NCBI RefSeq assembly: GCF_018977255.1
Contig: NW_024704743.1
Location: 5,458,001-5,522,000 of the forward strand
Direction: 5' to 3'
Origin: Callorhinchus milii
Lineage: Eukaryota
DNA length: 64,000 bases
Shown in pieces: positions 976-25,321 of this stretch. A program made the translations under genes and the position numbers. The stretch's first letter is position 1. Every line of letters starts with the position of its first letter. The notes under the pieces were generated by a model. It had not been told where the DNA came from. It did no database searches and saw nothing but the letters and a program-made list of their open reading frames with translations.

Positions 976-2429
976 TAAGTTGGGTCCTAAAAGGCAGCAA
1001 GGGGAAAAACTGCCCACTTTTCCTTGAAGTACCAGCAGATCTTAACGTTCACCTGAATCACAAGGCAGATATGCTAAATGCTAAATATCTCACTTGAAGC
1101 AATGATGATTATTTGGGGAATAATAAATCTGAATTTAATATGCTTTAAGATTTAATTTAATATTCGTACCCCCACACCCCCTTGATTTGAATCTCCACCT
1201 CAAGTGCAGGCAATTCACTGTCCAGCAGCTTGGGACGTTCTCTCGACATGAAAGGTGCTCTATAAATGCAATTTGTTGTTGTTGCTGGTTTCAATGCCTG
1301 CTCCAGAATACTATTTGCACTACTGTAGACTTTAAAATCAGCTTTTGGGAATAATTATCCTTACATTTAATATAGCATCTTATCGTGTGGCTGAGGCACT
1401 TCACAGAATATATTGTAAAGTGGATTGCCTGTGTATGTTGTGGTCGAAACACGGAAGCCAACTGCGCACAGCATTTATTATTATTATGATGAATATATAG
1501 AGTACTCATATGGCATTATATTCTAACTAAAGAAATCTGTACCATCAAATGCTTTAATGGTACAATAAATGTGATGAATTCAGAATTAAAATATGCTGAA
1601 ATTATTTCCACTCAAATGAAAATAAAATAAAATGTGAGACATTTAGTAAAAAGGGAGCAATTTTTTTTGCATCCAAATATTTTGCATGGTTGGAATTTTT
1701 TTTTAAAAATGTTTTGGGCAGGGTCATAGTGCAACTTCTAGTATCATATTGTGTAATTGCAAGACATCCAAGTCTACATAGATGCTATTTAACTCTGTTT
1801 AATTGAGTTTGTTTGTAAACTTAAATAATTCATTCAGTGAAAGTAGAAGAATAGCTTTGTAATTTATTTATGAAGTGAGAAACACATCAAACAGATTGTT
1901 GTAAGAAAGCAAGCCCTGTTTATTCTGGCAGTTGGTGTAGCCTTTTATTATGCTGGATGTTAAAATGAATGCACTCAGTTGCATTTCCAGACGTGCGAGG
2001 GGTAGGTCACCTCACGGAAACAAAGGCAGAATCAATCATGAAACATGACAAGAGTACAAACCAAACTGAGAATTATTGTTATTAACCCACACTTCAGAAG
2101 ATATATGTGCTGGATTTAAATACTGCTTCCTCTCCCACCGTGTCTGTTACACACAGAAACACTGCCTCAGGTTGCTTATATCAGGATGGTGCAACCTTTC
2201 GGCTGACGCGGGCCGGATTCCGTATTTGAGAAAGGTCTGTGGGCCACATCCAGCCCACAACCATTTCCAACATTTCAACTTCTGCTCCCTCCCTCCCCGG
2301 TGAATGTCCTCCCAGGGCAGCGACAGGAGCTGTCGGCTGGGAGGACGTGGCGCAGAGAGTGGAAATAATACCAGCCGTTACTGCAGTCTGTCAGGAAGGC
2401 AAGCGGGTCTCTTATCAACCACGCATCCT

Positions 2430-2931
2430 TAGCAACAACCGTGCAGATGGTGAACCATGCGGCTGATTGGGAGAGAGAGGAATTGAGAGGGGAGAGAGTG
2501 GTGTGTGGGGGAGAGAGAATCGGGGGAGATGGGATGAGAGGAGAGTGAGGAAGTGGTCAGAGAGGGGGGACAGTGATGGGGGGACAGAGATGGGGGGACA
2601 GAGGGGGAGTGGGATACTCTCCCCTTTTCTCCACTCTCTCTCCACACACTCTCTCAATTACTCTCTCACAACACTTCTCACACCATTTCACCCTGTTTCT
2701 TCCCTTTCACACTCCACCTGCCCCCACCTTCTCTCTCCCTTTCTCTCTCCTTCTCCCTCACATTCACTCTCCTCCATCACATTCACTCTCTCCTCCCCTC
2801 AAGACTCTCTCCCCATCCCTCTCTCTCCCTCCCCGCCTCTCTCTCCGTCCACCCCATCTCTCCCCCTCATCTCAATCCCCCTCTCTCCCAATCAGTCACG
2901 GGCTCCACTATCTGCACGGCGGTTGTTGTTA
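2430..2931. repeat. Foldback element: approximately 55-bp complex inverted termini around a purine-rich then pyrimidine-rich interior
   Basis: tagcaacaaccgtgcagatggtgaaccatgcggctgattgggagagag at 2430 vs its reverse complement ending at 2931; TA at both ends. Confidence 0.7.
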
Positions 2932-5519
2932 TTGTTATGTATGTATAGCCTGGATCCAAGTATCAAGTGTGAACGGTTATTAAAAAAACAACAGAAACAT
3001 TTCTTTTGCAGAGGGAATTACTCTCTGCTGCACAAGATCACAGGATGAAAGTTCCTGCCTACCTTATCTTAGCCCACATGTCACTACAGTGCAGCGAGCA
3101 CGAATTCACAAGGCTTTCCAACTTTTTGTCCACCAAAATTAAACAAACCCCATTAGCTTTGTTTGTCAAAGTGTTTGCAAAACGCCTATTTTTGGAGTTG
3201 AAGGTCGTTTGTAGAAGTTAAAATGAGCTATTGTCGTGTCTCTGTGGTTATGTTTGTTTAAAGCTGCTGCAGTAGCTGGAGAGCCATCTGTTCTTGTATT
3301 GTGCATGAGGTTGTGGGTTAGAGGAGACCAAAGAAACTGTTTCATGTACTGCCTTATTGTGGTTTCCTGGGAGTGTGGGTTCGCTAGTGAGCAATTGATA
3401 GTGGTGGAAAGAGGGGGTGGCTCTACCAGAGTGGTCCAACAGTTGGCCCGCGGGCACCATCCGGCCGGAGGGTGATTTTATCAGGCACGCAACCATTTCT
3501 AACATTAGAAAGTCTGCTCCCTTCCATAGTGAACATCCTCCCAGGATAGTGGCAGGAGCCAAAGGTTGGGGGAACACAGCATACAGAGTGGAAATAATAC
3601 CAGCCATTACTGCAGTCTGTCAGGAAGGCAAGCGCGTCTCTTACCAACCGTGTCCTTAGACGAAGATGGCTGTGTTAGAGCACTCTCTCTTGTACTAGGT
3701 GAGTTATTTCACCTTTTGTCCTTCAAGTGAGGAGGGGCGGTATCACTGTCCCATGATCTTGCACACACACCTGGCACATTCCTCAGGGTGCTTCTTAAGA
3801 ACATAGGAACAGGAGTAGGTACAGGAGTGGGACGTGAAAGACGCTATATAAATGTAATTTGTTGTTGTAGGTGGTTCTTCCACCACTTTCTCCTCCTTCC
3901 CCCACTCTGTTGGTAAATATCCCTTTACGAATGACGTTAAAAGGACATTCCATAGAAGTGAATACCAAGTTCCAGTGGGTGGTTTGACACTGGAATCTGA
4001 AGCCTATCAATTATTAGAAAACCTTTTACTTCATTACCCTTTTGGGATGTGAAGGACAAGACAGGACTCGGGACTGATGAGATATTGTGCAGAACCAGAT
4101 TTTTTTTGCCAAGATTTATTACATAGAACGTTACAACAGAGAAACAAACCATTGAGCCCAATTATTCCATAGTAGCCTCCACCCTTCCTAATCACCTCAA
4201 CCAGATCTTTTATTCCCTTCTCACTCATGTATACAACAATCTATGTAAATGTAATCTTACATATATTACTGCTTTCCACTTTAACCACAGATTCTGGATT
4301 GGCATATGAACTGATTCCATCTGTATGCAGACAGTTGTCCTTTAAGATGCCAGGCATGACAGTGAGCGTATTCCTTCTCAGGCTACCAGATCTGCAAGGA
4401 AGCCAGACTGGCTGGGCCAGGGATGTATTGATGAACATTAAAATGTGAAAGGACATGAAAAACAGAAATAGGCAAACAGCTACTCCTTCCCTGCAGTCTG
4501 TTATATTCACTGCATAAAAATCAAGGGACACAATGCACTCAATTCCTTCCTCAACAACCTGAGTGCCGCAAAATCAGGTCAGGGACTCTTACAAGTTTTT
4601 AAGTACTGTATTTACAAACTTCAGTGTGATTTAGATAGGTCACCAGGCTTTCCTAGCAAATTACAGATGTGACTAACACTACAGTATTTAGTGCCCCCAC
4701 CCTCTGAAACTCCATCCCGCAATCCCTCTACCTCCCTTCTGTAGCCAGCATCAGTAGCGGCCAGGACATAAGCAGGGTAGTGCAAATATAAACCCAACTC
4801 CAGTAAAACACACGGCACAATGGGCAAAGCAAACACATTCTGAAACATCAGACAGTCAGGCTAACCAGCTGCCAATGGTGGCAATGAAGTGCAACCATGA
4901 GAAGTGCCCACCTTGAACAGTGCCCATGTAGTGACACAGTCCATTCAGTGTGAAGGAACATTTGGCAATCCAGTCAGAATTTTTAAAATTGAGAAATAGA
5001 TGAGAGATTGACCAATTTACTCAACTCCTAAATGCTGCATCAGCCTCAGGGAGGCTAAAGTCTGGATTTTTAAAACAAAAATCAATACGGTAATAAGGTT
5101 GCTTCATTAACTTACTAAGAAACAAAGAACTTGTATTTTTAGTGCACCTTTATGTCATCATGTCTCACAGTGATTATTGTCAAGTATAGTGATTCTGTAA
5201 GTGAATGTGGCAGCCATTTACATATAGAAAGGTCCCACAAACAGCCATAACAGTTATAATTTGTATTTCATATTGTGTCAATTAACATTGAAACCTTTCA
5301 AACACTCTACAAGTAATTGCTGTAAAGTTTAGCAACTGTGTAGGGATAGCAATTTCCCAAAATAGCCAAGAGTAACTAATTTATCGGGAGTATTATTGGG
5401 CAGAATACCGGGAAAAACTCGCTTCTCTTTTCGAATAGCCTCATGGGATCTTTAACAGCCACCTAAAAAGATAGAAAGCATCTTGGTTTAATGTCTCTTC
5501 AAAGCACCCATGATAACTC

Positions 5520-5895
5520 AATGCTCTCCAGTACTGGAGCTGGCTCTGGCCTGCTTCATGACCCCTACTTCGCCCGCCCCACCATTGGCGGGCGGGTCTT
5601 CAGCCACTCTGCCCCCACCCTCTGAAACTCCATCCCGCAATCCCTCTACCTCCCTTCTGTAACCAGGCGTGGCAGCAATTTGCAACGACCTGCAAATAGC
5701 TATGAAGTGAATGACTAATTTATCTGAAGGGCTGTTCCCAGGACAGTAGAAAATCCCCCTTGCCTCCTTCAAGACCCATCTCAAGACCCTCCTCTTCAAC
5801 CATGCCTTCGGTCACCCTCCCCGATCCAGACCTCCAGCCTGGGTCCAGCAACTTGGGATGTCCTCCTGACGTGAAAGGCACTATATTTTGTTGTT
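5520..5895 (+). mobile_element. L2 3' end fragment carrying an approximately 97-bp inserted segment
   Basis: Matches the L2 3' UTR/tail seen at 17760-18075 apart from an insert at about 5655-5752. Confidence 0.8.
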
Positions 5896-8800
5896 GAAGT
5901 GTCCGTGTGAAGTCCCAAGTGAACAATTAATTTATCTAGAGGATTGTTTGTTAGATAACATATTGTTTGTAAGATTAGAACATTAATTTTAAATTAATCT
6001 AAATACTATACAGTGTATAAATATTAAGAAGCGAATGATTAATGAACTTCAATAAATAGAAATCTAGTGGCAGTTTAGTTTGGATTGATACAATTTTAAG
6101 GTAAAACATATTCTGGAAAGACGAGATCAAACCGTTGAAGGACCTTCTGTATCCGAACTGCTCTTTTGATCTTGACAGTTTAGTTTATAGAATGCCTACT
6201 GATGCATGTATGTTTACTGAATATGAAGAGACTTAACAGTTCAATGGGGAAGTGTCTCCCAAAACACAACGAGCCTCTCTTCTCAATCAGCTAACCTGTT
6301 CATGTACATAACATGAAATTTCTAGTCAGCTTTCTGTAGCTAGGCGTGGCAGCAATTTGCAACGACCTGCAAATAGCTATGAAGTGAATGACTAATTTAT
6401 CTGAAGGGCTGTTCCCCAGGACAGTAGAAAAACTCCCTTCTCCGTTTGAATGGAATCATGAGATCATACAGAATGCAGTGCTCCTTCAATACTGCATCAG
6501 AAGTCAACCACGAGTATGAGCTCAAATTCTGACGTAGGATTTGAATTCACAACCTCCTGACCCAGAAGTGAGTGCACCACCAAAATTAGACTTCCTCATC
6601 CACATACTGCAACTGGAAAGAACAGATGTCCCTACCGACTGACAGAGTGAGAGGATTGTTATAGCATGGATCAGACTAGCCTTGGCTTCTAGCTTAATAA
6701 ATCATGGGAACTTTGGTACAAAGCAGCCGTAAGGACATCCGTTTCTGCAGAGCCAGGTGTATGTTACTCCTGTTTTAGTGTGCAACTAAAAGACCTTTGC
6801 AAGTTTAAAAAAGTTGTGCCTCTGTTTTGGTGTATTGCTGGTATCCTTGGAGACTATGTTAAGTGAAAGATTAATGGCAGCATGTAGAGCTCTCTTCCTG
6901 CTGCTTTAAAAGAAATAGTGAAGCATCAAGTCCCACAAATTCTAGGCCATCCTGGTTTTGGTTGAGTAATATTGTAAAAGTGCTGTTTAGTGCATAGCTT
7001 ATATAGTGTTTAAGATATAATGAAAAGGAAAAAAAAAGCATTGTTTATAGCGAATTATCATATCAAAAAAATCTAAAAAGTTCTTTGCATATAATTACGT
7101 CATGCTGTTTTAGGAGGTTTGCGGAGCAGTCATTTCATACGAACAAACAGGAGGTATATGACCAAGTAATCGGATACCAGGAAAACTCTTCTCATTTCAA
7201 CAGAATAGCATCATGGGATAATAATCATGGTAATAAAAATAATCCTTGCATTTGGTATAGCACTGTATCATGTTGGAAGGACGTCTCAAAGCGCTTCACA
7301 GGATTTGCTGGAGTGACTGGAATAGACAAATGTGGCAGCACAATTGTGCACAGCAATGTCCCACACACATCCATGAAGTGAATCACCAATTTTATTAGGG
7401 GGAATTCTTGCTCAGGGCAATCAGAGAAATTTCCTTCACTTTTCAAATAGTGCCATGGGATCTTTAATATTCACAGGCAGATGGGACTTTGATTTAACGT
7501 ATCATCTGAAGTACGGCAGCTCCAACAATGTAATCCCCCCCAGAAAACCTCAAAAGGCTGGTCGAGCCAGTTCTCCGTCTTCATTGCCAATGAAAGCCCT
7601 TTGCTGCTTCTTCAGCTGCTTAATGTAATAATAAACCTTTCATTTGATATAAGGCCTTATCACGTCACACAGACGTCTTAAAGAACTTTCCACAGTATAG
7701 TGTAAAGTGGCTTAACTGTATTTTGTAGGCAAAACTGGCAGCCAGTTGCGCACAGCAATGTCCCATAAATAGCCATGGATTGAGTGATCAATTTTATTTG
7801 GGAGAACTGGGAGAAACTCCCTTCTCTTTTCGAATAGTGCCATGGGATCTTTTAGGTCCACCTGAACAGGCAGGGGGAACTTCAAACATAACATGACATG
7901 TAGTAGCAGGAGGAGGCCATTTGGCCCTTCGAGCCTGCCCCGCCATTCAATCATGGCTGATCTTCTAATCTAACTCCAGCTAATAACCTGACCCTGCCTT
8001 ATCCCCATATCCCTTAATCCCTTTTGCAATAAGAAATGTATCTATCTCAGTCTTGAATATGTTCAAGGACTGAGGGTCAATAGCCCTTTGGAGTAGTGAG
8101 TTCCATACATTCACCACCCTTTGAGTGACATCTCATTTGAAGAATGGCATCTCCAGCAATGCAACACACCCCCAGCACTGCATTGGAGTTTCAGCTTAGA
8201 CTACGCAAGTTCAAGTCCAAATGTGGTAGCACAGACATGAGTCCTACCAACTGAACCAGGGAAACACACAAATCTATTCCTCATTATCATTATTTCTCAT
8301 TAACATTAAGTATACATTATTACAATGAGTTGCACCTTATGAATCCTGGAGGCAGGGAGACCAGGGAGAAGGACAATAGTTTATAATGTGCACAGTGGCC
8401 ACACAGACAAATCAAATATACAGACAAACCACTTGTTCTTTCCACCAAATATCCGCACTGAATCCTATCTTACAACTTTGGTAGCATCAATTTCCTATGC
8501 TAAATTTGTCACATTGGCTGTGAAGAGAAGCACAAGCTGTTAAGAAGTGTGAATGGCCTGGTGCCTCTGTGTTGCCGCAGTCATTGCTGATAACAAGAAA
8601 CAGGCTCAAAAAAAATTAAAACCTGCTCAGTAGTTGCAGGACTGCAAACTTTGGGCATCTGCTTCCTACTTTCTGCTTGGACTCCCATTCAACAACAACA
8701 AATTGGATGTATATAACACCTTTTATGTCGGTAGGATATCAAAAGGTGCTGGGATGTCCATGATGTGATCCTTTATAAGTGCAAGTAGTTTCAATCCAAA

Positions 8801-10099
8801 TTACAATAACTAGCAAGTCATCTTGTTGCTTATGAGTCATTGATGATGCAGATTAGCTGCTGTGTTTGCCTGTAACATTCAGTTCCATCACTTCATGTAC
8901 ACTTTACAGCAACTCCTGGGAAGTAGTTTGAGAAGTTCTCCCAACACAAAAGGCACAATATCAAATACAAGGTTTTTTTTATATTTTTAGATCAATTATA
9001 CAGTATTCTCCAAAGTGCCTCAATATGTTTATTTTTACATAATAGGTGGTATATAAATGCAAGTTATTATAATAATTGATATTTTCGAGCTATTAAATTA
9101 ATTCATTGAGGTGACAAAATGCAATGAGAGGAATATGTAAATATATAGGACAGGATTCTGTCAGGCTATTGCTTCTAAGCCATTGTGTGTCGTTTCTCAA
9201 ACATTTTAAATTATGCAAACGACCAGGAAGCTGGAAAACCTTCTAGGCCACAGAAAGCTAGAGGATACTGAAATATACTGTGCCACAGAAAGCTGGAGGA
9301 TACTGAAATATCATGTCACCTAGTCAGGCTGTGGCCGCCCTGCCAGGATCACAGAACAGAAGGGAAGCTGGGGAATAGAATAGGGAGGAAGGAAAGGAAT
9401 GGGTGGAGACCCATTTGGAGTATAAACACTAGCATGGGCTGGTTGGAGCGAGTGGCCTGTTTCTGTGCTGTATATTCTTTGTAAATCTTTGTAAACTGCC
9501 GAATAGACTTAAAACCTATTTAATGTGATAGCTGCCTGGAAGTTGGGGCAATTATTCAGGAGTGGTTTGCTTTTGCAATAGAATTATGACACAGTGCATT
9601 TTAATATTCATTGCCTGAAATCAGCCCAGATCGATGGGATGACATTCTTCACTTTGAGGTCATCTCAACTCAAGTTTTGTGTGGGCATCAGCTGCTCAAA
9701 ACAGGCCTCAGTTCAGCACTAATATTTAGAGTATTTCAATCAACGATCCCACAAGTATTATTGCTTTGATGAAGAAACTAACCTATCTTAAGTTAATAGT
9801 TAGTGCAAGGTATGGGCGATTGGTGGATCACTTTGAAACATCTCAATGACGTGATAAGGCGCTATACCAAATGCAAGGATTATTATTATTATTGGTGTAC
9901 CTGATGAGGAAGAATGTAATGCTGGCTCCAACTACAAGAAAGACATTTTTCCTGGATTACTGAGTAGGTATAAGGAACACTTAGTGTAGCAGTAAGCCAC
10001 GTATACCTGAAGATCACAGGTTCAATCCTATTCTCTGTTAGCTGATCTCAATTTAGAGGATATTAAGCGCTCCGGGATGCTTAACCATCCAGGCCGCCG

Positions 10100-10930
10100 A
10101 GACCCCGGGATGCAGTGAGAGACAATGGCAGATCCAGGCAATGTTGTGAAGGTGGAGAAAGGTGGAGCAGGTCATGGCACGGATGTAGGGGATGAAAGAC
10201 AGTTGAGGGTTGAACAGGACGCCAAGGTTCGGTATTGGCTCCGTGAGGTATTTAATACATCCATGAAGGGTGATGTTGTCAGCGCCCAAGGTATGGATAC
10301 GTGAAGTGAGCGAAGCAGGAGGGTCTCGGTCTTGTTGACAATCAACTCGAGAAAGTTAGCTCTCATCCAGGACTTGATTGACGGATGGGCAGTCTGTGAG
10401 GACAGCAGCGGTCCTGGAGTCGAGGGTGGAGGTGGAGAGTAAAGTTGGGTGTAGATGATGTCACCAAGAGGGAGCATGTAAATGTTGAAAAGGAAGGGCC
10501 CAAGAACAGAGCTTGAGGGGCGCCACATGTGACGGTGTAGGCGCTAGAGGAGAAGCCATTAGTGAAGACAAAGTGGAGACAGTGGGAGAGGTAGGATTTG
10601 AACCAGGAAAGGGCAGGTCTGTGAAGGAGCTGAGAGAAGAAAGCGGTGGTGGAGGACGGTCAATGGTGTCGAAGGCAGCAGAGGTTGAGGAGGACAAGGA
10701 GGCAGAGAGAGCCCTGGTCACAGATGGACAGAATATTGTTAGTGATTTTGACCAGGCCTGGAGGGGTTCATAGAGGGAGTGGAGGGAGAAGAAAGAGCGA
10801 AGCTGGGACCCAACGACTCATTCCAGGGCCTTGGAGAGGTGGAGATGGGGTGATAGCTGGAGAGTAGTGATGGGTCCAGGGAAGGTTATTTGAGGATGGG
10901 GTGAAGACAGCTGTTTATAGAGGTCCGCTT
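10100..10930 (-). mobile_element. Degenerate L2 RT fragment
   Basis: SAAFDTID, SVLGPFLFNIYMLPLGDII, NLGVLFNPQLSF across frameshifted ORFs. Confidence 0.85.
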
Positions 10931-12850
10931 CTGAGAATAACTGTGGTGAATATGAACTGAAATCATGATGGATTATAATATAGAACCCACCCCCCAACTC
11001 TCCTTCCAAACCTTCCCCAAAAGTGTTATTCGGAAGGCAGAGTGGGTCATGGCATGCATCTGGGGTAGAAAGGATAGTTGAGGGTCAAACAAGACACCAA
11101 GGTTCTGGATTAGCTCAGTGAGGTGGAGTGGGCATCCTCGGATGGTGATGCTGTCAGCGCCTGAGGTGTGGAGGTACTGACAGGAGCCAATCAGGAGGTT
11201 ATCTATTTCAGATTATCTATAGTTCAGAATGTTACATCGTGTACAATATTAACGTTAGCTCCGCTTATTGAAATAAAACGTATTTGAAATCCAAACTGAT
11301 CATGGAAAGGGGGGAAGAGACAGAAGAGGTGGAAAGCTAATGTACTTTTGGGCAGGGTTAGAAAAGAATATGAATGGCAATTGGGGTAAGGAAAATTCTG
11401 ATTATCAGTGTTGAGTTCATGCTTTAAATGGCCCACTTGGAAACTCCATACCAGATCAATTGGCAACTGTAGCATTATACCTAAAGTTCAGCGTTGGCAT
11501 GTTTTTCATTTGACTCACAATCAGGCTGCCCTCCAAAAACATGTTAGCTCTCATGTTCTCGTGTTCCCGTCTGGGAAGGAGATTTCATTTGAAGGTAGTG
11601 GGAAAACGCTGGATGTTGGATTATGAGAGGGGGCGGGTGACTGAGGTCAATCACCAGATAAAAAGCCTCGCCACCTGCTCGGTTTCTTACGTTGTCCATC
11701 TGCTGTGTAGATCAATAGAGCTTGAGCGGCTTCCAGCTGGCATGGGCTTGAGTATTACTCTAGGTTCTAATTGTAACGTGTGAACTGACTGTGGCCAATG
11801 CTTAGTTTCAAAGGATGTTTTACTCCAATCTCAGTACATTCATGAAAAATAAGGCTGATCTCAGATTACTGTATCAAATATAAATTGCATCATCGCTGCT
11901 ACTACTCCCACAAATAAAATCATAATCCTTGCATTTGATATAGCGCATTTCACGCCAGGTGCACATCTCAAAACACTTGATAGGATTTACTGCCTACAGA
12001 GCAATGTTACACCATGTACAATATTAACGTTATCCCTGCTTATTGAAATAAAATGTGTTTGTAACCCAAACTGATAATGGTGAGGGGGTGGGTGGGGGGG
12101 GAAAGAGGACAGAAGAGGTCAAAAGTTAATGGATTTTTGATAGTGGTATAGGCAAACATTTGCATTCAGCAATGTCGTACAACCAATCATGAAATGAATG
12201 ACCAATATTATCTAAGGAATTGTTGATCAGGATACCAGGAGAAACTCTTCTCTCTTTTCCAGTAGTATCATGGGATCTTTAACATCCACTTGCACAGGCA
12301 GATGCGACCTTGGTTTAATATCTCATACAAAGGACGGCACCTACAACAAAAACTTACTTATTTAGTACCCTTCACATATGGTCTCGGAACGCTTACCTAC
12401 AACAATGCACAACTCCCTCAGCACCACATTGGAGTGTTAGCCTTGAGTAGACTGGTGCTACAAACTGAGCCAAGCTGACACCTCCAACTGATCCAAGATG
12501 ACTCTTGCTAACAATTTAATCTTTCTTGTGTCCAACTATCAGTAAATTCCTGTAATGCAGGAAGTAATTCCTCTCACAAATGAAAACGGTTAAATTTTGG
12601 TTGAGCCGGAACTTATGAATGGCTGGCAAGGAAGTCATTGGAGAAGTCATGTCTGTTGGTAATAAAGGCGTGGACAACGATTTTGGCTGCATTGTATGCA
12701 AGATGGAGATGAAACTTGCGATGTGGAAAAGATGAAGAAAAATGTTGTTGGTCAGAGACTGCATGTTAGGAAAGAAAGATGAGGTCAAAAAGAACACCAA
12801 AGTTGTTCATTAGCTTAGTGAGGTGGAGAGAGCAGCCAGAAAGATTGAGG

Positions 12851-13713
12851 TGCGACGGTTCTCACCCCTTGTGTTTCCCGCAAAGTGTTTCCCGTGTGTT
12901 CAATCCATCCCTGGGAGTGCAAGTTCCCTATTCAAAGATTTAACTTCACTAATGAGAGTCAACACGACAACAGGTATTACTTTGCTTTATAATTATAGCA
13001 AATCAAAGCTTCTATCAGAATCCTTCGCATTAAACAAACTGTGACGTAGGCTCAACCTGTGTATGTAAATCCCCTCCCTCCTGATTTAAACAGAGACTTG
13101 AGAAGCGCGATTAGGAAAGCTCAACAGTATTTTATTGGTGTTTCAGAAACAACCCTATGCCTTACTTAACTGCCCATTAAATCTGGAAATGCAATGTTAT
13201 CCCTAACACACTATACTATACAGCCTTTTAACACGTTAGTAAACAACAGAAAAAACCAATCTTGACCCAGAGGAGTCTTTGTCAAGTCAGGCACTGTGAT
13301 GAAAAACAAGGTGAATAGTGACCACAAGTCATTTAGACTTGCTCCTTTTAAGGGCATTAAGCCTATCCCCTTTCGGAAAGTATCTATCAATACCTTTTCC
13401 CAGCCAAAACAAACAAAATGTATTGCAGTAGCTCTGCCCTCTGGATCCTTCCAATCCTCTTTTTTCCACCAAATTGCTGCTAAATCTAGACTTGATGTCA
13501 CCAAAACGGTATTTACCTTTAAATAAAATACCGTCTATGGATTTTAAATCGTTCTTAAAGCTATACTCCGTAGTGGCATAATTGCGTATGCGCGAGTTTT
13601 CCAATAGCGCAAACATCAAACCTTCAATAGCACACAGGCTTACTGAAGCTTTCAACAATACATAGGCACAAATATATGTTTAAAAGGTTAATAATAATGG
13701 GGTGTCGGTAACA
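12851..13713. mobile_element. Solo LTR (about 863 bp) inserted in an old L2
   Basis: Termini TGCGAC...GTAACA, 4-bp TSD gagg/gaag. The flanks (12600-12850 and 13714-13900) are collinear pieces of one minus-strand L2 ORF2. Confidence 0.65.
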
Positions 13714-15170
13714 GAAGTAATCGGAAATAGAGGTAATAAGGTGTTGGCGGGATCTGAGGAGGATAACTTCCATTTTGTCAACATTGAGCTGAAGGAAGTT
13801 TAGGCTCTGTAAGAACTTCATTGGACATAGGATCAAGGTTGAAAGTAGAAAGGTTATATTTGGGTTTCATCAAAAACATGGAAATTTACACTATACCCAC
13901 TGTATTTGCTGACATACAGTCACCACTTTTGACAGCAACATTCATGAATCGTTTGGAGATGTTTCAGTTTGATTAGGCGCAATGAACAATGCCCCCAACA
14001 CAAAAAACATTACAATTTTCAAATATTAAAACACTGCATTCTGGAAAAGGATGAAAAGAGGCAGATACATCACATTGCAAGAACAAAACTGTCTCCAATA
14101 TACAGAGGAAAGTTTTATTCTGTTGCCACAACAATATACTGATCGGTCAATTCAAAAGCTGGTTACTTCAACTTCCCTGACCAAGAAAGCAACTACTGGA
14201 GCAGTACAAATTTGTTAAGACATGACACAATGCAACACATGTGTAATTACATTGTATTCTTTGTGGGTAGTCATATGAAGGCAATAATTACTCTATAGGA
14301 TACAATGCACATGATGAAAGGAGTGACAAGTGTGAACTTCAAGTGTGGTGTGTAAGGAGATTAGATACTGACAGGCAGACTGTTGCACTGAAGCGAGCTC
14401 TCTGTACAATTACAAGTCTCTAAGCAGCACAATGCATTAAGACCCAGAAACATACGTTATCTATAGCGAACTGGGGATTTATTAATCCTACTTATTCACA
14501 GTCACTGTAATAATGAGTTGCATCCATCAGTGTTATCTTTCTGAATGCAGAATATCTGAAAATGTCAATATGTAGGTTGAGTGCAGTTGCATGCAACTCC
14601 CCAAATCTTTAAATGTGCAAACATGAATTGGATTGAATGGTTGGATGGAGCGGAAGTGATCAATGTCCTTACTACCCAGAAACATCCAGAACAGCCTCCT
14701 ACAACAATGCAACTGGCAGAGAATTTGGATAGTGATACACAAACATATGTGAGGATGGCTCAGAACAACAGGTATCAATATCAAGACATGAGGATCTCAA
14801 TTAAACACCATCAGAATCAGAAAGCTGATCCCTGGTATTTATTACAGGCTTGTTAGCTTGTGACATATATCGTGGTAACATTTGTGTCCACAATAAAGCA
14901 ATTCAAATGCAAGTAAAGACAATACAGTAATTTCAATATCAGGATAATGAAAGCTGGACTGTGACAAGGCTTATCGGAAGGCTCTCGGCACCTTGTAGAA
15001 TCAGAGAATGAGTAATGCAGTAGTTGTTATAGGACTTTCAGAGGTGCTCCACGAGAACCTTGTGGTGAATGTTGGAATAGCAGAGGATGTTGTGCACTGG
15101 ATAATAGAATGACTAAACAATAGGAAACCAAAGGTCACAAGTCATGATGACCAATGGTTGTTCTAATTGG

Positions 15171-15394
15171 TATAAACACAGAAGTCACTGGGAACACCCA
15201 GTACATCAGGAAGGATCCATGGAGAGAGGAAAATGAGTTAATGTTCCAGGTCAATGACCATTCGTCAGACCTTTCGTTCTGACGAAAGGTCATTGACCTG
15301 AAACGTTAACTCCATGGATGCTGCTTGACCTGCTGTGTGTTCCCAACGACTTCTGTGTTTATTCCAGATTTCCAGCATCTGAGGTACGTTATCT
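15171..15394. mobile_element. Non-autonomous Penelope-like retroelement, inverted-repeat structure, two hammerhead motifs
   Basis: Arms of about 95 bp (15174-15269 and 15278-15360) are reverse complements. Perfect 14-bp TSD gttgttctaattgg (15157-15170 / 15395-15408). Inserted in an old CR1 RT remnant. Confidence 0.75.
15276..15310 (+). ncRNA. Minimal type I hammerhead ribozyme motif (PLE type), intact core
   Basis: GUU-CUGACGA-A-AGGUC(AUU)GACCU-GAAA-CG-UU-AAC: stem I GUU/AAC, core CUGANGA, 5-bp stem II, GAAA, palindromic ACGU helix III. Predicted cleavage after 15307. Confidence 0.7.
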
Positions 15395-15574
15395 GTTGTT
15401 CTAATTGGACCAATTGAAACCTGCAGAGTTACCCAAGGATCAGTCCAGGAACTTCTGCTCACAGCATTCTTGAATAACATAAATAAAGATATTGAAAGTA
15501 CAATGTCTAAGTTTGCAACAAATTGGTCAGAGAGGAGGGCATTTGGAAGATGTGAGCTTGAGTCAGTTGGTAAC

Positions 15575-15950
15575 CCACTTATCCCTAAGCAGAGAGCAGT
15601 AATTGAATTTCTCACAGCTCAGGGGATTTTGCAGATTGGGATTCACCATTGTATTATGAAAGTATACGGATACTTATATGTTGATGCGAGTACGGTAAAA
15701 CGCTGGGTAAATCACGTGAAAAGTGGAGAACCTAAACTTAAAATAGGTCCAGCAACAGCTGTTACTGAAGAGAATACACAGAAAGTTGATGAACTGATCT
15801 GCAAAAATCGACACATCACTCAGCATAAATTGAGTGAGAGTCTCGGTGCACCATAGAGGTGATTATTGATAACCTTGGTTAATCTAAAGTTCATGCTTGG
15901 TGGGTTCCACGAATGTTAACTGTGTTTCACAAGGAAGCCAGAGAGGCCAT
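15575..15950 (+). mobile_element. Mariner-family transposase N-terminal remnant
   Basis: KQRAVIEFL....IH..IMKVYG..YVDASTVKRWV....GE...GPATAVTEENTQKVDELI..NRHIT, then after stops KVHAWWVPRMLT (mariner WVPHEL linker motif). Confidence 0.85.
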
Positions 15951-17469
15951 TGGCATTATTTTACTGTAATACAACAACAACTTACAGTGAAATCCTGTGA
16001 AGCATACCAAGACATTTTGATGATGTGATAAGATGCTATATTGCATGCAAGGATTATTTTATTACGTTATAAAGATGATTAGTTTCAGACTGCAAAGCCT
16101 CAGAAAGGCGAAAGAATGTGCTATTCTATTTTCATAGCATTCGTAGGTTGGAAAATAAATTAAAAATTCTCATGTGGAGCATCTTCAATTGGGATTGCTG
16201 AATAGCAATGAAGAAAACATAGCCTATTTTCCCCAGGCAGCACGTTGACAAGTGATTTAATTGAGTGCGGATGGGAGAGGGAGGAGAAGAGAAACCGCGG
16301 CATGGATTGCTGAATAGCAATCAGTAGGGGGAATGCTAGCTAAAAAAGTTACCAGGGATTAAACCTGTAATTGTTCACATTGAACAACTTCTGAATGGTA
16401 TTGAAGTGCTCTTTATATTCATTCCTAAGTACTGTAATTACACATTAAAATACTCTTCTGCAGAATACTTAACCAAATAGAAATTACTACAAAATGTCTT
16501 CATAGAACAGTGTTTAATTCCCAGAGTGGTTTATTCTGATGGTGAAAGTATTGGAGTCAGGAGATCTCACGCAAAATGCAAAAGTAGTGCTTTTGAATTA
16601 AATTGACACATGAGAGCATAAGATCTAGCAAGATATCCAGCAATGACTTGCACTTTTACGCACCTTTCACATAGGATAAGTACTTTACCAAGACAACGGG
16701 GGTCTGGGCCAAAGGGTCTTTTTCATCCCAACTGTTCTTGTGAGTCATCAGCGCCTTGGGACGTCCTCCCGACGTGAAAGGCGCTCTATAAATGCAATCT
16801 TGTTGTTGTTGTTGGGGGGCGGGAGGGGGAATTAATTCCAAAAGTATTATTTAGGCAATGGCTAGCTCTGAAACAGCATTTTTTGCTTTACTTAGGAGCA
16901 CAAGCAGACTGGGTGGAAGAGGTAGAATCCCAGGCAAGCATGATCCCATTTTTACCTAATGTTTATTCAGTAGGCATCTGATAGAGGCTGTCAGTTACAA
17001 ATAGAATCCAATAATTTGCTTTTATAACTCTGTGTTAAAAGCATTCTGTGTTAACAGCAATAGAACTACAAATGTAAATCACGGGTCTGGGGAAAGGGCA
17101 GGGAAATGGGACTGAATGGATTGCCAGTACAGACACAATGGGCTGAATAGGCTTCTTTTGTGCTTTAATGTCAATGGTTCTATGGTTCTAAATGTGCAAT
17201 ATTTTTTAAGAGAGACAGGGATCGAAAATGCAGGATCATTGTTATTATTGCTATTATTATTATCATCATCATCATTATTGCTATTATTACTATTATTGTT
17301 CCGTCACAATCCCTTTCCAGATGAGTTGGAATAGAGATGCCATGGATCAATGTGACCCACACAATATTTACTGATCAGGCTGTAAACATTGCATTTTAAC
17401 TCCCATTGTCCATTCAGTGCAAAAACATATGCAAATAGGCGGGTCAGCAGCTCTACAATGTACATCACC

Positions 17470-18075
17470 GATGTGCTCATACACGTATTCATAACATTGA
17501 GGCTTGACTATGCAAACTCCTTGCTTGTCGGCCTCCCCAACTCCTCCCTTCTTAAGCTGCAGATCATCCAGAACTCTTGCAGTCCGTGTCCTCTCCCGCA
17601 CCAGGCTCTGTGACCCTCCTATCCTCGCCCGGCTGCACTGGCTTCCCATCACAGAGGATACAATTCAAGATCCTGATCCGCACCTTCAAAGCCCTCCATA
17701 GCCTTGCTCCCTCCCTACCTCAGTGACTTCCTGACCCCCAACCATCCTGCTCGCTCTCTCTGCTCAGCGGGCTCCGACCTGCTTCACGTCCCCTGCCTCG
17801 CCTGCCCCACCATTGGTGGCCGGGCTTTCTACCACTCTGCCCCCACCCTCTAGAACTCCATCCCACAGTCCCTCCGCCTCGCGCCCTCCCTTGCCTCCTT
17901 CAAGACCCTCATCTTCGACCATGCTTTTGATCACCCTGCTCCCGCCTCTGCCATCCAACCTCCCCAATCCCGACCTCCAGCTCGGGTCCGAAACACTGAC
18001 TTTACAGCACCTTGGAATGTCCTCCCGACGTGAAAAACGCTATACAAATGTAACTTTGTTATTGTTGTTGTTGTT
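17470..18075 (+). mobile_element. L2 3' end
   Basis: RLDYANSLLVGLP...LQIIQN, PILARLHWLP, then tail cctcccgacgtgaaa...(TTG)n. Confidence 0.88.
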
Positions 18076-20334
18076 CTGTCAATCAAAAACACATGAGCAC
18101 AGAAAGTCATTTCACAATATATACACACATAACCTACAAGCTCAAAAGAGTTCATCAGAAGAGTCACATGTTTCAATGGTGTCACGGAGTGACTGCTTTT
18201 AAACTCAACAGCTGGGAGGGGGGAAGAAAGTGTAAAGGGCATTTATATCTGCATTAAGTTGTAGTTCTGGATTCTTTCCCGTAGGCTATACATAGCAATT
18301 TCTGAAGAGTTTCCTACACAGAAGTAAAAGTAAAAAAAAGGTATTCTATCTTGAATGTGCCTTAATCTGAGTGAGGCCTCACTCTATGGTAGTAAGGCGA
18401 AAAGAGTAACTTGAGAAAATTATGAATCACTGTAAGAGATCCCTTATTCTTCAGCACATTCTAAATTATCCACACGCCATCGCCTCTACATTGTGCAGTT
18501 TCACTTTATTCTATATTTAGCTCTGTATGTTCATCAAAAAATAAATGAGTGGTCCCTGCTACAACTGAAAACTTTACCATTGCAGATATCCGGATAATGA
18601 GAAGCCAGGCCGGTTCCATTAAAGCAATGTAAATGATCACGCCATTTTTTTGAAAGTCAGTGCAGAAAAACACTCCTGAATTGCTTTTAAAAGGCAAGTG
18701 AACAGAAACGTTTAAGAACGTTAGTCATTTGCTACAGCACTTGAATTCATTTTTAAAAAATATTTCAAAAGTAGTCTGTTGCCATGGCATTTGTGAGTCA
18801 TAACACAGTTAAGGGTATGAAGCTTCAATGGCCAGCTCTTTATGCAGTAAATGGAGCAATATTTTTTTTTAAATGGTAAAACATTAGATAGTATTCATTT
18901 GGATTAGGGAGCGGAGGAAAAGAGGGAGAGAATGCAGCTGCCTACAGTACCCAAGATCTTTTAATATAATTATATAAATATAATTTCAATGACTTGTGTT
19001 TTGCTGTGCATTATTGTCCTATCTTTCCCTGTATGAGATCCTGTATTTCCTTCACTGCACCTCCTCAAAAGCGGGTCATTTCACAGTCACTATTTTTCTT
19101 CATGGACAAATGGTACTCTTTTCAGTAATGTACTCCTGTTTCTGGGGGCTACAGAAACAGAGCGGAACTTCTGTCCACAGCACTCTATATATATTTCATG
19201 GTAATCCCCTGCCAAAACAAAACGTCGTGAAGTCAGTGCTAAATATGTGATCCCACATGCATTTAGGTCCTGCGTCACTCAGCAGGATTAACCTTTGACC
19301 TTCATTACATCCTTTATACTATGCTCAAAGACCCTCTCAAATAAAGGTTACAGGTTAGAAACCTTTTCAAAACAAGACTTACCTTACAAAAAAAAAGCCA
19401 TGTAACTGTCAAGTGGTCCAAGATGCCGCCCCATGCGAAGGGCAAATTGTTGTACACATCAATTGTTATATAAATGCAAGTTTTTGGATACGTCAAATTG
19501 ACTCAGCCGTAGCACATGCGCCTTGGGATCAGATGATTGCATTCAATAATTCCTCATCGGGACATAAGCTTGCAGTCCAGGCTAACACTCCAGGGCACTA
19601 CCCAAGGGTGCAGTATTGTCAGAGGTATTGTCTTTGAATGAGGCTTTAAACTACTCAAGTGGACACTTAAGAACCATGACACTATTTGAAAAGAGAAAGG
19701 AATCTGTCCCAGTAAACTTGGCAATAACACTCCAAATCAGCTGGTCATTTACTTAATATATCTTTATGGGATTTTGCCAGGAGAATCTCCCTTCTATTTT
19801 CGAATGGTGCCATGGGATTTATAATATCCACCTGAACTGGCAGATGGGACCTCAGTTTAATGTCTCAGCCGAAGGATGGTATGTATAAAATAACGACACT
19901 CAACGTTTTTGTTTTTTTGAAGGATTATCCCCGGATAAGTGATCCGCCAATCAACTAACAACTGGGTTCCTACTTACTACCAGGTAAAAACAGAGGCGAG
20001 TGGAGTAAGGAAAACTTGCCCAACCTGCCAGGAATCAAACTCAGGTCTCTCATTCGTGAGGTGAGTGCTCTAACCACTGAGCTACAGGACTCAAACTCTA
20101 CTGTAATCTTTTAGTTTATTTTAGAAATTAGACAGACTGTTTTGGGAACTCTAGAAATTTCTTCTATGACCCCTTGTTTTTTGAAGACATTAAAAAAGAA
20201 TAACGTATTCAGCAATGTTCTATGAATAAAATGCTTTCACTGACATGATCAAAGCATCAGCTCCCAGGGTGGACTGAAACTTGCTAGTGATGTGATCTGG
20301 AGAAATTGAAAATCGACTGCTACAGCCCATAAAC

Positions 20335-20870
20335 ATTACAACAACAACAAGATTTCATTGACAGAGTGCCTTTCACGTCAGGAGGACCCGAGCAGGGGAG
20401 AAATGGTGAGGGGAGGGAAGGGAGGGAGCGAGGAGAGGGTAGAGAGTCGAGAGGGGAGCTGAAGGCTCGGTCAAAGAGAAAGGTCTTCAGTCCGGCCTTG
20501 AAGGAGGAAAGGGAGGAAGCGGCGAAGGCACTGGGGGATGGAGTTCCAGAGCCTCGGGGCTGAGAGGCTGAAGGCCCGACCACCGATGGTAGAGCGGGGG
20601 ATGTGGAGCAGACCGGAGCCAGAGGAACGGAGGGTACGGGCAGGTAAGTAGGGGAATAGTAGGTCAGAGAGGTAGGAGGGTGCGAGGCCGTGAATGGCCT
20701 TGTAGGTGAGGATGAGGATCTTGAATTCGATCCTCTGGGGGATGGGGAGCCAGTGGAGGCGAGCGAGGGTGGGAGTGATGTGGTCGCGAAGCCTGGTGCG
20801 GGACAGTACACGAGCTGCAGAGTTCTGAATGACCTGCAGCTTGTGGAGGGAGGTGCCGCGAAGGCCGGCG
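20335..20870 (-). mobile_element. L2 3' end
   Basis: LQVIQNSAARVL...HITPTLARLHWLPIPQRIEFKIL...GGRAFS..APRLWN; (CAA)n tail. Confidence 0.9.
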
Positions 20871-21320
20871 AGGAGAGATAATAAAACATCAAATAGCATC
20901 ATTAGAATTCCACAAACTGGAAACAGCTGGGACACAAACCAACATTACCAAAGTGCTTTTTATTTAAAGGAAACGTCTCAAAGCGCTTTGCAGAAGGTGA
21001 TTCATGAGAAACAAAGTGAACGTTATGTTGGCATCTTTGGCAGCTAATTTGTGCCAACGTGCTACACAATAAACAGGAGCCCAAATTTCCACCCAGTCGT
21101 GGCCCATACAACCATTTTGCCTTAAAATGTATGATTGTGCAGAAATGTGGAAAAACATCAATGGCATTTTAATTTGGAAATTGTTTTCCTGCAGTTCTTA
21201 AAAAGAACACGGTTCCAATTTAAGAATTTTCCACAATTATGTGCAATCTTAAAGTTTGAGTTTGGATGAAAAGGGACACAGGGAAACTTTGCATGCTCCA
21301 GCCTACAACTAGCAGGAGGG

Positions 21321-21652
21321 AATAATAATAATAATAATAATAATAATCCTTGCATTTGATATAGCGCTTTTCACGTCGGGAGGACGTCCCAAAGCGCTTC
21401 ACAGAATATACTGTAAAGTGAATTGACTGTATATTTGTGGGCGAACGCGGCAGCTAATTGCGCACAGCAATGTCCCACAAACAGTCGTGGATTGAAAATG
21501 ACCAATTTATTATTGGTTTTGGTTTTGGAGGGATTATTATTAGGCTCTGTGTGGAGTGAGGAAACTTGCCCAAGGTCTCGCCCTGCCTGGAATTGAACTC
21601 AGGTCTCTCACTTGCAAAGCAAGTGCTCTAACCACTGAGCTACAGGACTCCA
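21321..21652 (-). mobile_element. Young tRNA(Ala-TGC-like)-headed Deu-domain SINE with L2-type tail
   Basis: Head tggagtcctgtagctcagtggttagagc (A box), ttgcaag loop, gagttcaattcc (B box). Deu core tgtgggacattgctgtgcgcaattagctgccgcgtt; tail ending in (TTA)n. Confidence 0.9.
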
Positions 21653-21816: not shown

Positions 21817-22136
21817 TGGAGTCCTGTAGCTCAGTGGTTAGAGCACTCACTTTGCAAGTGAGAGACCTGAGTTCAATTCCAGGCAGAGGGCGAAACCTTG
21901 GGCAAGTTTCCTTACTCCACACACAGCCTCATAATAATCCCTCCAAAAAAACAAAACAATAATAAATTGGTCATTTTCAATCTACGACTGTTTGTGGGAC
22001 ATTGCTGTGCGCAATTGGTTGCCGCGTTCGCCCACAAATATACAGTCAATTCGCTTTACCGTGTGTTCTGCGAAGCACTTTGGGATGTCCTCCCGACGTG
22101 AAAAGCGCTATATCAAATGCAAGGATTATTATTATT
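21817..22136 (+). mobile_element. Young Deu-domain SINE, full length
   Basis: Near-identical in reverse complement to 21321-21652. Confidence 0.9.
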
Positions 22137-22460: not shown

Positions 22461-25175
22461 ACAGTCTTGATCTACAGATTACATTATGGTAGACAAGAGT
22501 TTTCAGCTGAAGATGAATTTAGCAGCTCAAGGAAACACTACAGAAAATACAATCTTTCTCCTGAAAGACCAGAAAATGAGGAGATTTAAAAAGAATTCTG
22601 AAAAGGATTGCCACAACAGAGTTTTGTAAAGTATTGAAATGCTGTGGAATTAAGGACAGAATAGAGCAGCTAAAATTTAGGACACTCGCAAGCAGTAACC
22701 TCATTTAATTCACCTTGAATTAAACAGCACGGCTTTTGTTCTGAGGCTGAAGGATTGCTTTTGAATTAAGAATCAAAACTTTATTCAGCACTGCTACACA
22801 AAATACTGTGAGTATCTAAAGAGTATAAATTTAACGTAATCACACAAGGAATTAAATAATTAAAGCTTAGAAAACATTTCTTTACACAGAGCACGGTGAC
22901 AACGTATACATCGATTATTTTAAAAGGGAATTGAATAGATTCTTGAAGAGGTGGTTTATTAACAAGTATAGGGAGCGAGCATGAGAGTAAGATTAGCTTA
23001 GGTGGCTCATGTGGAGAAAACACCAGCACACAACAGCACAGACTTGATGGGTTTCTGTGCTGTGACAATCTATAACACACCCTGGTGCGGGCTTGAGCTA
23101 GCCAATTGAATGGCACTTGAGATCATGAGTGTCTGCTGCTCTGCCAAGCCTCGCCCAAAAGACGGTTCAAGGTAATGAGTTCAGGGCACACCTTCCTGCA
23201 GCTTGAAATCCTCAATTGGCAGCAAGAATTCTATTACTCACAGCCCACAGTCCAATATGTCAGAAGAGTGAGAGAATGTTAAAGCAAAGGAACAGACCAT
23301 CAAGCCTGCGCCTGTGTTTTTCTTTTGATGAACCACTTAATCTAATCCCATTCTCCTGCTCGTTTCCTGGACCATTTAATATTCCTCTTTTTCAAGCATC
23401 AATGCCATTCCATTTTAAATGATGGACCAAATGGCCTTTTACTATGTGGTAATAATAATAATCTTTGCATATGATAAAGCTTCAATAAAATATCTGTGAA
23501 TTTATGGACTCTGCTTCAGCAGAGAATCCCACAATCCAAAATTACCATTTTTTCTTACCTCCCTAAAGTATAATAATAATTCTTATATTTGACATAGCAC
23601 TTTATTGTGTTGTCGAGATGACTTAAAGCATTTAACAGGAATTACTAAAAGATAATGATTGTGTATTTTGTAGCTGGACGTGGCTGCCAATTTGCACAGA
23701 GCAGTGTCCCACTATGACCAATGACCATTTTTTTCTGGGGGAATGTTGGCTAGGACACCTGGAGAAACTCCCTTCTTTTTTGAATAGTACCATGGGATAT
23801 TTAATGTCCAACTAAATAGGTAGACAAGCAGATTGGATACTTTTGTTGCATCAATCAAGATGTATAACTTTTCAGAGGTAATAATCCCTCCCCCAAAAAT
23901 TTATAATAATTTGGTGATTCAATCCACAATGCGGGACCCTGCTGCGTGAAATTGGCTGCTGCGTTTTGCCCACAAAATACACAGTAAACCCACTTTAAAA
24001 TACATTCTGTGAAGCGCTGTGTGACTTCTCAACGATGTGATAAGTCGCTATATCAAAGGCAAGTATTATATTACCGTATTTAATTCCAGTAAAGAGACAC
24101 TAAACCACCCATACACAGTAGGCAATCAAGGGAGTCATACGGAGGGTTGGAAGTGTAGAAATCTATCAGCTAATCAGTAAAACCAGCAATTGGAATCACC
24201 GATCAATGCTTGCCAGAGGAATGTGACTAATCACTTACAGAAACATTCTTTGTATGCTCTGAGATATTACACTGCAACTGAGGTGTGCTCAAGTCAGAAA
24301 TACCAGGGCCTGTATGGGAAGAAAGCAAGTCAGTTACACCATCGATAGTGTAGTCCCACCTCAAGTACAAAACAATCATGGAAACCCAATAATGAGAAAA
24401 TATATCCAATTTGGACTATGTATGTCCCTTGCTTGGGATCTTTACTTCACCATAACTATTTTATTAAACTGCTGCAATGCTCCCATTTGTAGTCAAGCTT
24501 TCAGCCATATGCCCTCTTCTTTTAGAACTCTCTCCCAAATTCCTTTGCCTTGCATTCTCTCACACCATACTCAAAACACCTTTTCACTTTGCATTCAAAA
24601 CTCTGTTAAAATGTAGCTTTTTGAACGTCCCTTTGGTTAACACCCTCAAACACCCCTTTCTTTCCTCCCATCTTGGTAATCCCAATCATCATCAGAAGTG
24701 CCTCAAAATGTTAATCGCACATAAAGATTGCTATATAAATACTGATTCCTGCCGTTGTTTAGATAAAGCAGTCAAGGGAAGGTGACTTCAGCGAAAGAAG
24801 TTTTTACTGTGTTGAGCAGATCATGGGATACGATCCTGAAATTAACTGTGCTGGGACTCAAAGTATGCCTCCTTCATTGGCCAACTTGATACAGCGTTGT
24901 GTAATGTGTGGCACTGTTTTTGGAATTGGCTTTGGTTTACACTATGTCGGCAGACAGCTGCAGCGGAAGCTGTGAGCCGCCTCGTAGATCAGAGACTTAG
25001 GATCACAAGGAAACCATTCTCTTTCTGAAAATAGTCTGGACAATGGTTTATCTTGATTTTCTAAGAATCCGAATTAGCCGTTTCCACTAAACACAGTGTC
25101 AGTTTGGTTCAGTTTGAAGTGTACTCGCCTCTGGCTTAGTTTGCGAGCCTCATATAATGAGTTGGGTCACATTAG

Positions 25176-25321
25176 AAAATAAAAGCAGAAGTCGCTGGGA
25201 ACACTCAGCAGGTCAGGCAGCATCTATGGAGAAAGGAAACTGAGTCAACGTTTCGGGTCCACGACCTTTCTTCAGAATTGTCTTTGTTTTCAGATTTCCA
25301 GCATCTGTAGTATTTTGTGCT
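25176..25321. mobile_element. Second copy of the hammerhead-bearing Penelope-like element (one motif on - strand, 25242-25279)
   Basis: Same arm sequence (cagaagtcgctgggaacactcagcaggtcaggcagcatctatggag...). 14-bp TSD ttgggtca(c/t)attag at 25162-25175 / 25322-25335. Minus strand reads CUGAAGA-A-AGGUC(GUG)GACCC-GAAACGUU. Confidence 0.7.

Follow-up and report, generated by a model that had tools for sequence, protein, structure and literature searches.

Three short inserts in the 64-kb window (the whole stretch of Callorhinchus milii DNA that was analysed) are probably short copies, in most cases arranged head to head, of the pseudo-LTR (pLTR) belonging to a decayed Penelope-like element (PLE) of the RT/GIY-YIG type, made at insertion by priming on both target strands. 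In themselves, they are ordinary PLE debris carrying a published ribozyme motif, and their value lies in the end-point data they provide on integration.

The inserts, the ESYT2 locus and the hammerhead motifs

Alignment bore out the three related inserts proposed by an earlier sequence-only reading, located at nt 15171–15394, 25176–25321 and 45502–45677 (copies 1, 2 and 3) and showing a mutual identity of 73–91% across the aligned stretches. No fourth family copy was found in the 64-kb window, apart from a few matches of 13–29 nt with E values of at least 0.085. The direct repeats proposed to flank the inserts were retrieved at all three (14/14, 13/14 and 12/14 identical positions), with chance probabilities, 625 boundary choices being allowed, of 3e-6, 1e-4 and 2e-3 for copies 1, 2 and 3, respectively. 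When aligned to longer relatives, each insert turned out to consist of two arms, unequal and placed head to head, that represent the same sequence. The inverted arrangement previously seen in two copies was therefore right for those two but not limited to them, since copy 2 is head-to-head as well.

Positions on the arm are numbered from C3 of the hammerhead (position 0). Copy 1 lies between a 14-bp target site duplication (TSD) at nt 15157–15170 and its identical repeat at nt 15395–15408 (14/14). Its inverted pLTR arm (nt 15171–15269, minus strand) runs from an outer end at site E1 (≈+97) to an inner end at −1 and has a mutated core, while the direct arm (nt 15276–15394, plus strand) spans from −3 to site E2, the end of the tail (≈+131), with a 13-nt internal deletion immediately past stem I. 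The filler at the junction (nt 15270–15275), together with the next two bases, is the reverse complement of arm positions +3 to +10. Copy 2, with TSDs at nt 25162–25175 and 25322–25335 (13/14), consists of an inverted arm (nt 25176–25277, minus strand, E1 at ≈+97 to −2, C3 at nt 25275) and of a short direct arm of ≈39 nt (nt 25283–25321, plus strand, ≈+92 to E2 at ≈+131) that is essentially tail. Copy 3, with TSDs at nt 45488–45501 and 45678–45691 (12/14), has a tail-bearing inverted arm (nt 45502–45639, minus strand, E2 at +131 to −4, C3 at nt 45635) and a short direct arm (nt 45648–45677, plus strand, −1 to +28). The latter terminates where the hammerhead is predicted to cut (at +28, or at +30 if the TSD is taken as 12 bp), which is the end expected for the copy of a 5′ cleavage product; none of the 60 direct arms selected by an intact core had its 3′ end at +28, and the end in copy 3 may be a deletion.

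By protein search, the minus-strand segment nt 42467–42051 was 100% identical to extended synaptotagmin-2 of Callorhinchus milii and corresponds to the first coding exon of ESYT2 (nt 42051–42467), which PDB and Pfam searches did not identify; further ESYT2 exons are placed just left of the window. Copies 1 and 2 fall within the first coding intron of ESYT2, which lies on the minus strand, and copy 3 is ≈3 kb upstream of the first coding exon. For window positions 14000–17000, no RNA data set was listed as containing matching sequence. The window also holds seven tRNA-like Rfam matches (nt 71–135, 20020–20091, 21578–21649, 21824–21886, 27409–27483, 28732–28803 and 50828–50899), alike where shown and likely representing heads of a tRNA-derived SINE, and LINE reverse transcriptase fragments in long stop-free frames (nt 20471–20944, 43811–45128 and 51133–52657), which we take to be L2/CR1-like.

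Five hammerhead motifs were recognised in the three inserts, and the sole intact one, a minimal type I hammerhead, resides in the direct arm of copy 1 (nt 15276–15310, plus strand), antisense to the ESYT2 pre-mRNA. The letters previously read there (core, stems and ACGU palindrome) were confirmed, with C3 at nt 15279, an extra A after A9, a stem I of 3 bp (GUU/AAC) and a stem II of 5 bp (nt 15287–15291/15295–15299); cleavage is predicted after nt 15307. The minus motif of copy 1 is damaged (A13 changed, U-U at 10.1–11.1), the minus motif of copy 2 keeps the core letters with an A-C at 10.1–11.1, the base of stem II, and just 2 bp of stem I, the minus motif of copy 3 has lost G12 and stem II, and its plus motif is without the 3′ strand of stem I. 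The Rfam search of the window gave no match to a hammerhead family at E ≤ 10, as expected because the motifs are minimal. Two weak miRNA matches over copy 1, far below their cut-offs, reflect its hairpin.

Folded as a whole, the 224-nt copy 1 is predicted to form a hairpin of −117.8 kcal/mol, with the hammerhead fold lying 28 kcal/mol above it, so that the core is predicted to be buried. In the lone arm, stem II is predicted with P ≈ 0.9 and stem I is weak (0.03–0.26); neither is predicted in the whole element. A dimer of the back-to-back motifs through helix III is impossible, the motifs being on opposite strands. Two arm RNAs could pair through the palindrome, yet the optimal co-fold is another duplex (−27.9 kcal/mol, versus −13.5 kcal/mol for stems II and III alone). 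Motifs of this kind are reported as inactive in the monomer and of low activity in the dimer (PMC4209133). In all three inserts the ribozyme is predicted to be inactive, i.e., a passenger in these stubs.

Genome-wide, a core pattern admitting both subfamilies matched exactly at 930 sites (reversed control, 0), the pair 10.1–11.1 being G-C in 536, A-U in 220, A-C in 24 and, by subtraction, G-U in 150. Covariation in stem II amounts to one compensatory change, G-C/A-U at 10.1–11.1, splitting the two subfamilies and counting as one event; the G-U forms likely result from CpG decay.

The parental element and its abundance

The arm is the pLTR of an old and decayed autonomous PLE with a RT/GIY-YIG ORF. 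An arm search of the same genome (992 Mb) yielded 2,872 first-look candidates, 40 of which were scored; upstream sequence was common to 3 of 30 arm loci and in one continued into a GIY-YIG C-terminus. In 29 of 30 endonuclease (EN) loci, including the query's own locus, the arm followed the GIY-YIG end and lay on the same strand, and the order RT-EN-arm was collinear in 17 of 24 long loci, among which L095, L097 and L100 carried an inverted arm upstream. At the opposite end, pLTR, tail and ORF N-terminus follow each other unbroken in L274, L281 and L292, i.e., in 3 of the 30 loci found with the 5′ part of the ORF. Because it adjoins the GIY-YIG end and continues into the ORF, the arm is the PLE's own pLTR. 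The Penelope origin claimed from sequence inspection is upheld by these three sets of loci, and the autonomous PLE sharing the same pLTR was indeed retrieved, with all scored copies decayed. In L274, L281 and L292 an ATG at ≈+50 opens a frame across E1 and the tail, which is in frame with the following ORF part in L292 only; two more acceptor-like signals occur in these loci, at ≈+101 and ahead of a second ATG.

The RT-EN piece of L095 retrieved 188 relatives, shark and ray proteins first. Its best matches (56–63% identity) are in sharks and rays, with the exception of one unnamed ENA protein (45%), and many relatives are labelled RVT_1 or GIY-YIG (Pfam). Pfam search of the piece itself gave RVT_1 (E 5e-4) and GIY-YIG (E 0.012), both weak and below the curated cut-offs. 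Among the 150 copies scored of 335 candidates, the longest open frame was 542 aa and every copy was broken. A CX4CxxC linker precedes the endonuclease; a linker search matched in 18 of 54 loci, 15 of them with three cysteines (two of these being one locus twice), and a CX2-5CxxC linker was present in 7/7 homologues inspected. Such a linker between RT and EN marks Neptune and Nematis (PMC8557442). Judging by the linker, the element would belong to the Neptune/Nematis type. Between the two, our tentative choice, based on motifs and on the description of Neptune and Poseidon as the widespread vertebrate groups (bioRxiv 10.64898/2026.07.22.740005), is Neptune. The features of EN+ PLEs present here comprise an RT-then-GIY-YIG ORF, a pLTR continuing to the 5′ end of the ORF, a one-sided tail and a hammerhead in the pLTR. 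Sequence related to the EN part of L281 (L281:2000-2700) was also seen in contigs of runs guessed to be RNA, one of which (799 nt, depth 63) has an 18-nt in-frame insertion; these contigs possibly derive from a second, better-preserved PLE family.

Exact motif counts, to be read as lower bounds on abundance and with reversed controls giving 0, were the above 930 for the ribozyme core, 1,925 for a 23-mer near E1 and 3,313 for a subfamily-B 18-mer. The 18-mer was exact in 16 of 40 B arms, implying ≈8,000 B arms. In a sample of 40 regularly spaced 10-kb stretches, 2 insertions were counted, corresponding to ≈5,000 genome-wide (95% range 600–18,000), and the window with the adjoining 60 kb contained 5. 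On these sequence counts, the copy number would be of the order of 10^4. Six near-identical copies, L007-L012 (G000:C21:5.71-5.78 Mb), have flanks 97–99% identical and would, by this resemblance, be a segmental or tandem gene duplication and not separate insertions.

End points and mode of insertion

End points were read in a pooled sample of 144 loci, obtained from 60 loci selected by an intact core and 88 selected by the 23-mer (148 minus 4 duplicates). The 23-mer set derives from 90 of the first 100 matches listed, from which L182 and L185 were dropped as partner arms. An inverted pair was present in 62 loci and a single arm was detected in 82. The 3′ ends fall at two sites ≈34 nt apart, E1 (≈+95 to +101) and E2 (≈+131). 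The inverted copies comprised 51 E1+E2 pairs, 1 E1+E1, 0 E2+E2 and 10 with an unclassed end, so that 51 of the 52 classed copies use one site per arm (p ≈ 1e-14), while single-arm copies end at E1 in 39/82 and at E2 in 39/82.

A TSD score of at least 10 was reached by 31/62 inverted and 10/82 single-arm copies (Fisher p 8e-7); as a control, 2/300 flank swaps scored that high. In the inverted copies, TSD length ranged from 10 to 17, with a median of 14 and exactly 14 in 11/31, hence the long 14-bp TSD formerly deemed constant holds as a centre and not as a constant. The true stagger is probably ≈1 nt below the apparent TSD. Microhomology at the priming ends averaged 1.03 nt per run (40 usable ends of 62) against 0.50 after shuffling; since a TSD edge offers two chance runs and the shuffle includes just one of them, the fair expectation is ≈1.0, and no excess is claimed. 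Many inverted copies have a junction filler of 5–58 nt.

In the reading we favour, the PLE endonuclease would nick both target strands ≈13–14 bp apart. Within the RNA, reverse transcription would start at E1 from one nick and at E2 from the other, and the two cDNAs would then be linked in head-to-head fashion, leaving small overlaps or fillers at the junction. Taken jointly, the nicking of both strands, the use of E1 and E2 one per nick and the head-to-head joining seem to us somewhat more likely than not. In vitro, a PLE protein nicks and extends both strands, uncleaved RNA is its main substrate and reverse transcription starts at two internal sites flanking the tail (PMC11167929). The templates would also here be mostly uncleaved element RNA, because only 1/100 arms breaks at +29 (by eye), with the RT running off the likely 5′ end of the RNA. 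A 5′-proximal copy of E1/E2 would yield run-off cDNAs of 100–135 nt, i.e., the stubs, and a 3′ copy in read-through RNA would yield the long copies; for this division of roles we see the case as evenly balanced. None of the full-length copies has its 5′ end at −3, the observed starts being −46, −115 and +25, which implies that long copies need read-through or tandem templates. Against twin priming, a TSD is found in only 10/82 non-inverted copies, which the model accounts for only if repair resolved their second end, and the start sites differ in composition, E1/E2 being U-rich on the sense strand and those of PMC11167929 AC-rich.

At the other end of the arms, 49 of the 66 that reach +2 in the E1-selected sample (74%) stop between −8 and +2, with the mode at −3 (19 arms); in the life table of 5′ ends, from which L205 was left out, the background rate per 11-nt bin was 0.05–0.16 in seven downstream and 0–0.18 in four upstream bins. 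The stop coincides with the first pair of hammerhead stem I, within CCAGTTC at −6 to 0. Instead of a transcription start, it might reflect RT stalling at a protein-bound 3′ splice site, or trimming by a 5′ exonuclease down to a protected hammerhead, an explanation that we regard as a serious contender though of somewhat less than even probability. It would account for the coincidence with stem I and for the full-length copies running past −3, and is consistent with the composition of L105, where −250 to −6 is 75% pyrimidine and ends in CAG at −5 to −3. Moreover, the 5′ side of helix I is where an intron terminates in Drosophila virilis Penelope (PMC4209133). On the contrary, no common exon sequence was found upstream of −3, so that a spliced template is not seen and was discarded as a candidate. 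The motif CCAGTTC also fits the initiator consensus, YYANWYY. In the same direction, the promoter of D. virilis Penelope is internal and lacks a TATA box (PMC2377424). Counting against the reading we favour, no excess of a cap-derived G was seen before the −3 ends (G in 12/39); a G precedes 12/16 of the −4 ends, mostly as TG, and was rejected as a trace of the cap since fold-back on stem I explains TG as well.

Hammerhead cleavage was likewise rejected as the source of the 5′ ends. By eye, 1 break at +29 and 2 near +27 occur in the first 100 subfamily-B arms listed, and the 7/123 ends clustering at +26/27 sit on the AACGTT palindrome. In one arm of that hundred (L371, G000:C1:12346284) the inverted arm stops at +29, one base past the predicted cut, and abuts a short piece restarting at +29, forming a local palindrome.

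The inverted arm could also arise from a single cDNA that folds back and primes itself, the tail being left by endonuclease resolution, or from an antisense template, as proposed in PMC3846280; we hold this to be unlikely. Fold-back likewise predicts E1+E2 pairs, and a few junctions are perfect palindromes or show stem I/AACGTT microhomology; in addition, a TG lengthening the complementarity of stem I is present in 9/16 arms that end at −4. The comparison of arm lengths speaks both ways. The tail, present on the E2 arm alone, belongs to the longer or about equal arm in 26/51 copies, as fold-back would have it (E2 arm longer in 11/51, arms within 15 nt in 15/51). In the other 25/51 the tail-bearing E2 arm falls short of the E1 arm by 15 nt or more on the 5′ side, so that each arm has sequence absent from the other and, barring a later one-sided deletion, neither can be a fold-back copy of its partner. 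In the E1-selected subset, the E1-longer, E2-longer and similar classes number 15, 6 and 6 of 27. Deletions inside the hairpins after insertion could account for some of the asymmetry. The fillers of 5–58 nt at many junctions and the non-inverted copies, among which E1 and E2 are equally frequent as end points (39 each of 82), are also at odds with fold-back.

A still less probable explanation, to which we give little credit, is the one of the sequence-only reading, namely a discrete non-autonomous and non-coding element, retrozyme- or SINE-like, transcribed whole and mobilised in trans by a PLE protein. In its favour, 78/85 loci picked by the motif near E1 span at most 270 bp and most copies start at one point; furthermore, mobilisation in trans driven by the pLTR (PMC3846280) and tandem retrozymes derived from PLE pLTRs (bioRxiv 10.64898/2026.07.22.740005) have been reported. 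Yet the junction geometries of the inverted copies are distinct in 62/62 cases, the window copies are not tandem arrays, and the inverted form would fold as the −117.8 kcal/mol hairpin. Nor do the short copies form a clade. With 80 short and 49 long arms, the tree required 38 label changes against 39.3 when shuffled (181/500 shuffles as low), at a low resolution of 101 columns and 8 well-supported branches, and both subfamilies mix short and long copies (43/25 and 37/24). Copy lengths grade from ≈60 nt to several kb. A fixed unit at unrelated sites with a lineage of its own, as in a SINE, was not found, the tree being poorly resolved. Together with the arm being the PLE's own pLTR, the differing junctions and the missing clade argue against the discrete family. 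Each short insert likely arose anew at insertion instead of deriving from another short element. Solo pLTRs may have supplied short transcripts as templates in trans.

Finally, a DNA-transposon MITE that happened to carry hammerhead-like letters in its terminal inverted repeats would share the hairpin anatomy and the high copy number but can practically be dismissed, given that the repeat is part of an RT/GIY-YIG element, the arms are unequal, variable and 5′-truncated, with a single arm detected in 82/144 loci, and the TSD is 10–17 bp, not short and fixed. The preference for target-primed insertion over a MITE, already expressed on the sequence, is sustained by the RT-EN parent, the unequal arms and the 10–17-bp TSD.

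As to insertion sites, a hotspot was noticed, in that one 14-bp site of an abundant repeat recurred at the boundary in 7/144 loci with at most 1 mismatch (1.4 expected) and in 13/144 with at most 3 (≈4.5 expected), in both orientations. The loci include L121, L129, L160, L163, L164, L165, L184 and L231, and unoccupied look-alike sites occur in the window at nt 540, 21409, 27205, 28093, 47863, 51057 and 57833.

Significance and comparison with known systems

Thousands of short and readable insertions in one genome provide testable rules for PLE integration: each strand uses a single start site, neither arm is copied from its partner, the stagger is close to 14 bp and the 5′ ends halt abruptly at stem I. 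For the origin of inverted pLTRs and tails in PLEs, self-priming was proposed in 2013 and two RT start sites were described in vitro in 2024 (PMC11167929). Extending the two-strand reading, one RNP might allot its two RT start sites strictly one per nicked strand (≈13–14-bp stagger), on an RNA that begins at the first hammerhead pair and whose 5′ start sites mass-produce ORF-less insertions. We advance this tentatively, as a combination just short of evenly balanced. If true, it would settle the choice between self-priming and twin priming for PLE inverted repeats and would mean that the template starts with the ribozyme. In practice, stubs of this kind are open to being mistaken for MITEs, microRNA hairpins or new ribozyme retroelements. 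Papers describing such stubs in chondrichthyans, the 5′ stop or PLE twin priming did not turn up in the literature searched, and the family may already be catalogued in Repbase or Dfam.

Minimal pLTR hammerheads, opposite-strand pairs, inverted pLTRs, one-sided tails and TSDs are published PLE features. The motifs described here share with the published minimal PLE hammerheads the type I core, the extra nucleotide after A9, the palindromic 15.2–16.2 and the short helix I, as well as the occurrence of many solitary copies and of opposite-strand pairs 100–700 bp apart. They differ in having a stem II of 5 bp and, in subfamily A, A10.1-U11.1 where G-C is usual; the accessible part of that work makes no mention of chondrichthyans.

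Non-LTR retrozymes (bioRxiv 10.64898/2026.07.22.740005; see also PMC7761336) are likewise small and non-coding, carry a type I hammerhead and derive from PLE pLTRs. They are, however, head-to-tail arrays of a fixed unit, whereas the copies described here are single or head-to-head, variable in length and each with its own junction; a tandem fixed unit was seen neither in the three window copies nor at the 62 inverted junctions.

The Poseidon element PAc of Anolis carolinensis (Frangieh et al. 2024, PMC11167929) has, as here, two internal end points flanking a tail that continues into the ORF, uncleaved RNA as the apparent template and no excess of homology between target and RNA. PAc belongs to the Penelope/Poseidon clade, is active in vitro and has AC-rich start sites. 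The element described here differs in its Neptune/Nematis zinc linker and in its U-rich end sites, and none of its scored copies has an intact ORF.

With respect to Pen2a_Av of the rotifer Adineta (PMC3846280; scheme in the legend of Fig. 2 of PMC8557442), most insertions here are ORF-less and mostly of at most 270 bp, the TSD has a median of 14 instead of the 8–10 bp of the rotifer examples, and the 5′ stop at stem I is sharp, a feature not described in the accessible parts of those sources. In other respects the two correspond: both have head-to-head inverted pLTRs with a one-sided tail (30–40 bp in Adineta, ≈34 nt here), both are heavily truncated at the 5′ end, and in both a TSD accompanies the inverted copies and is often absent otherwise.
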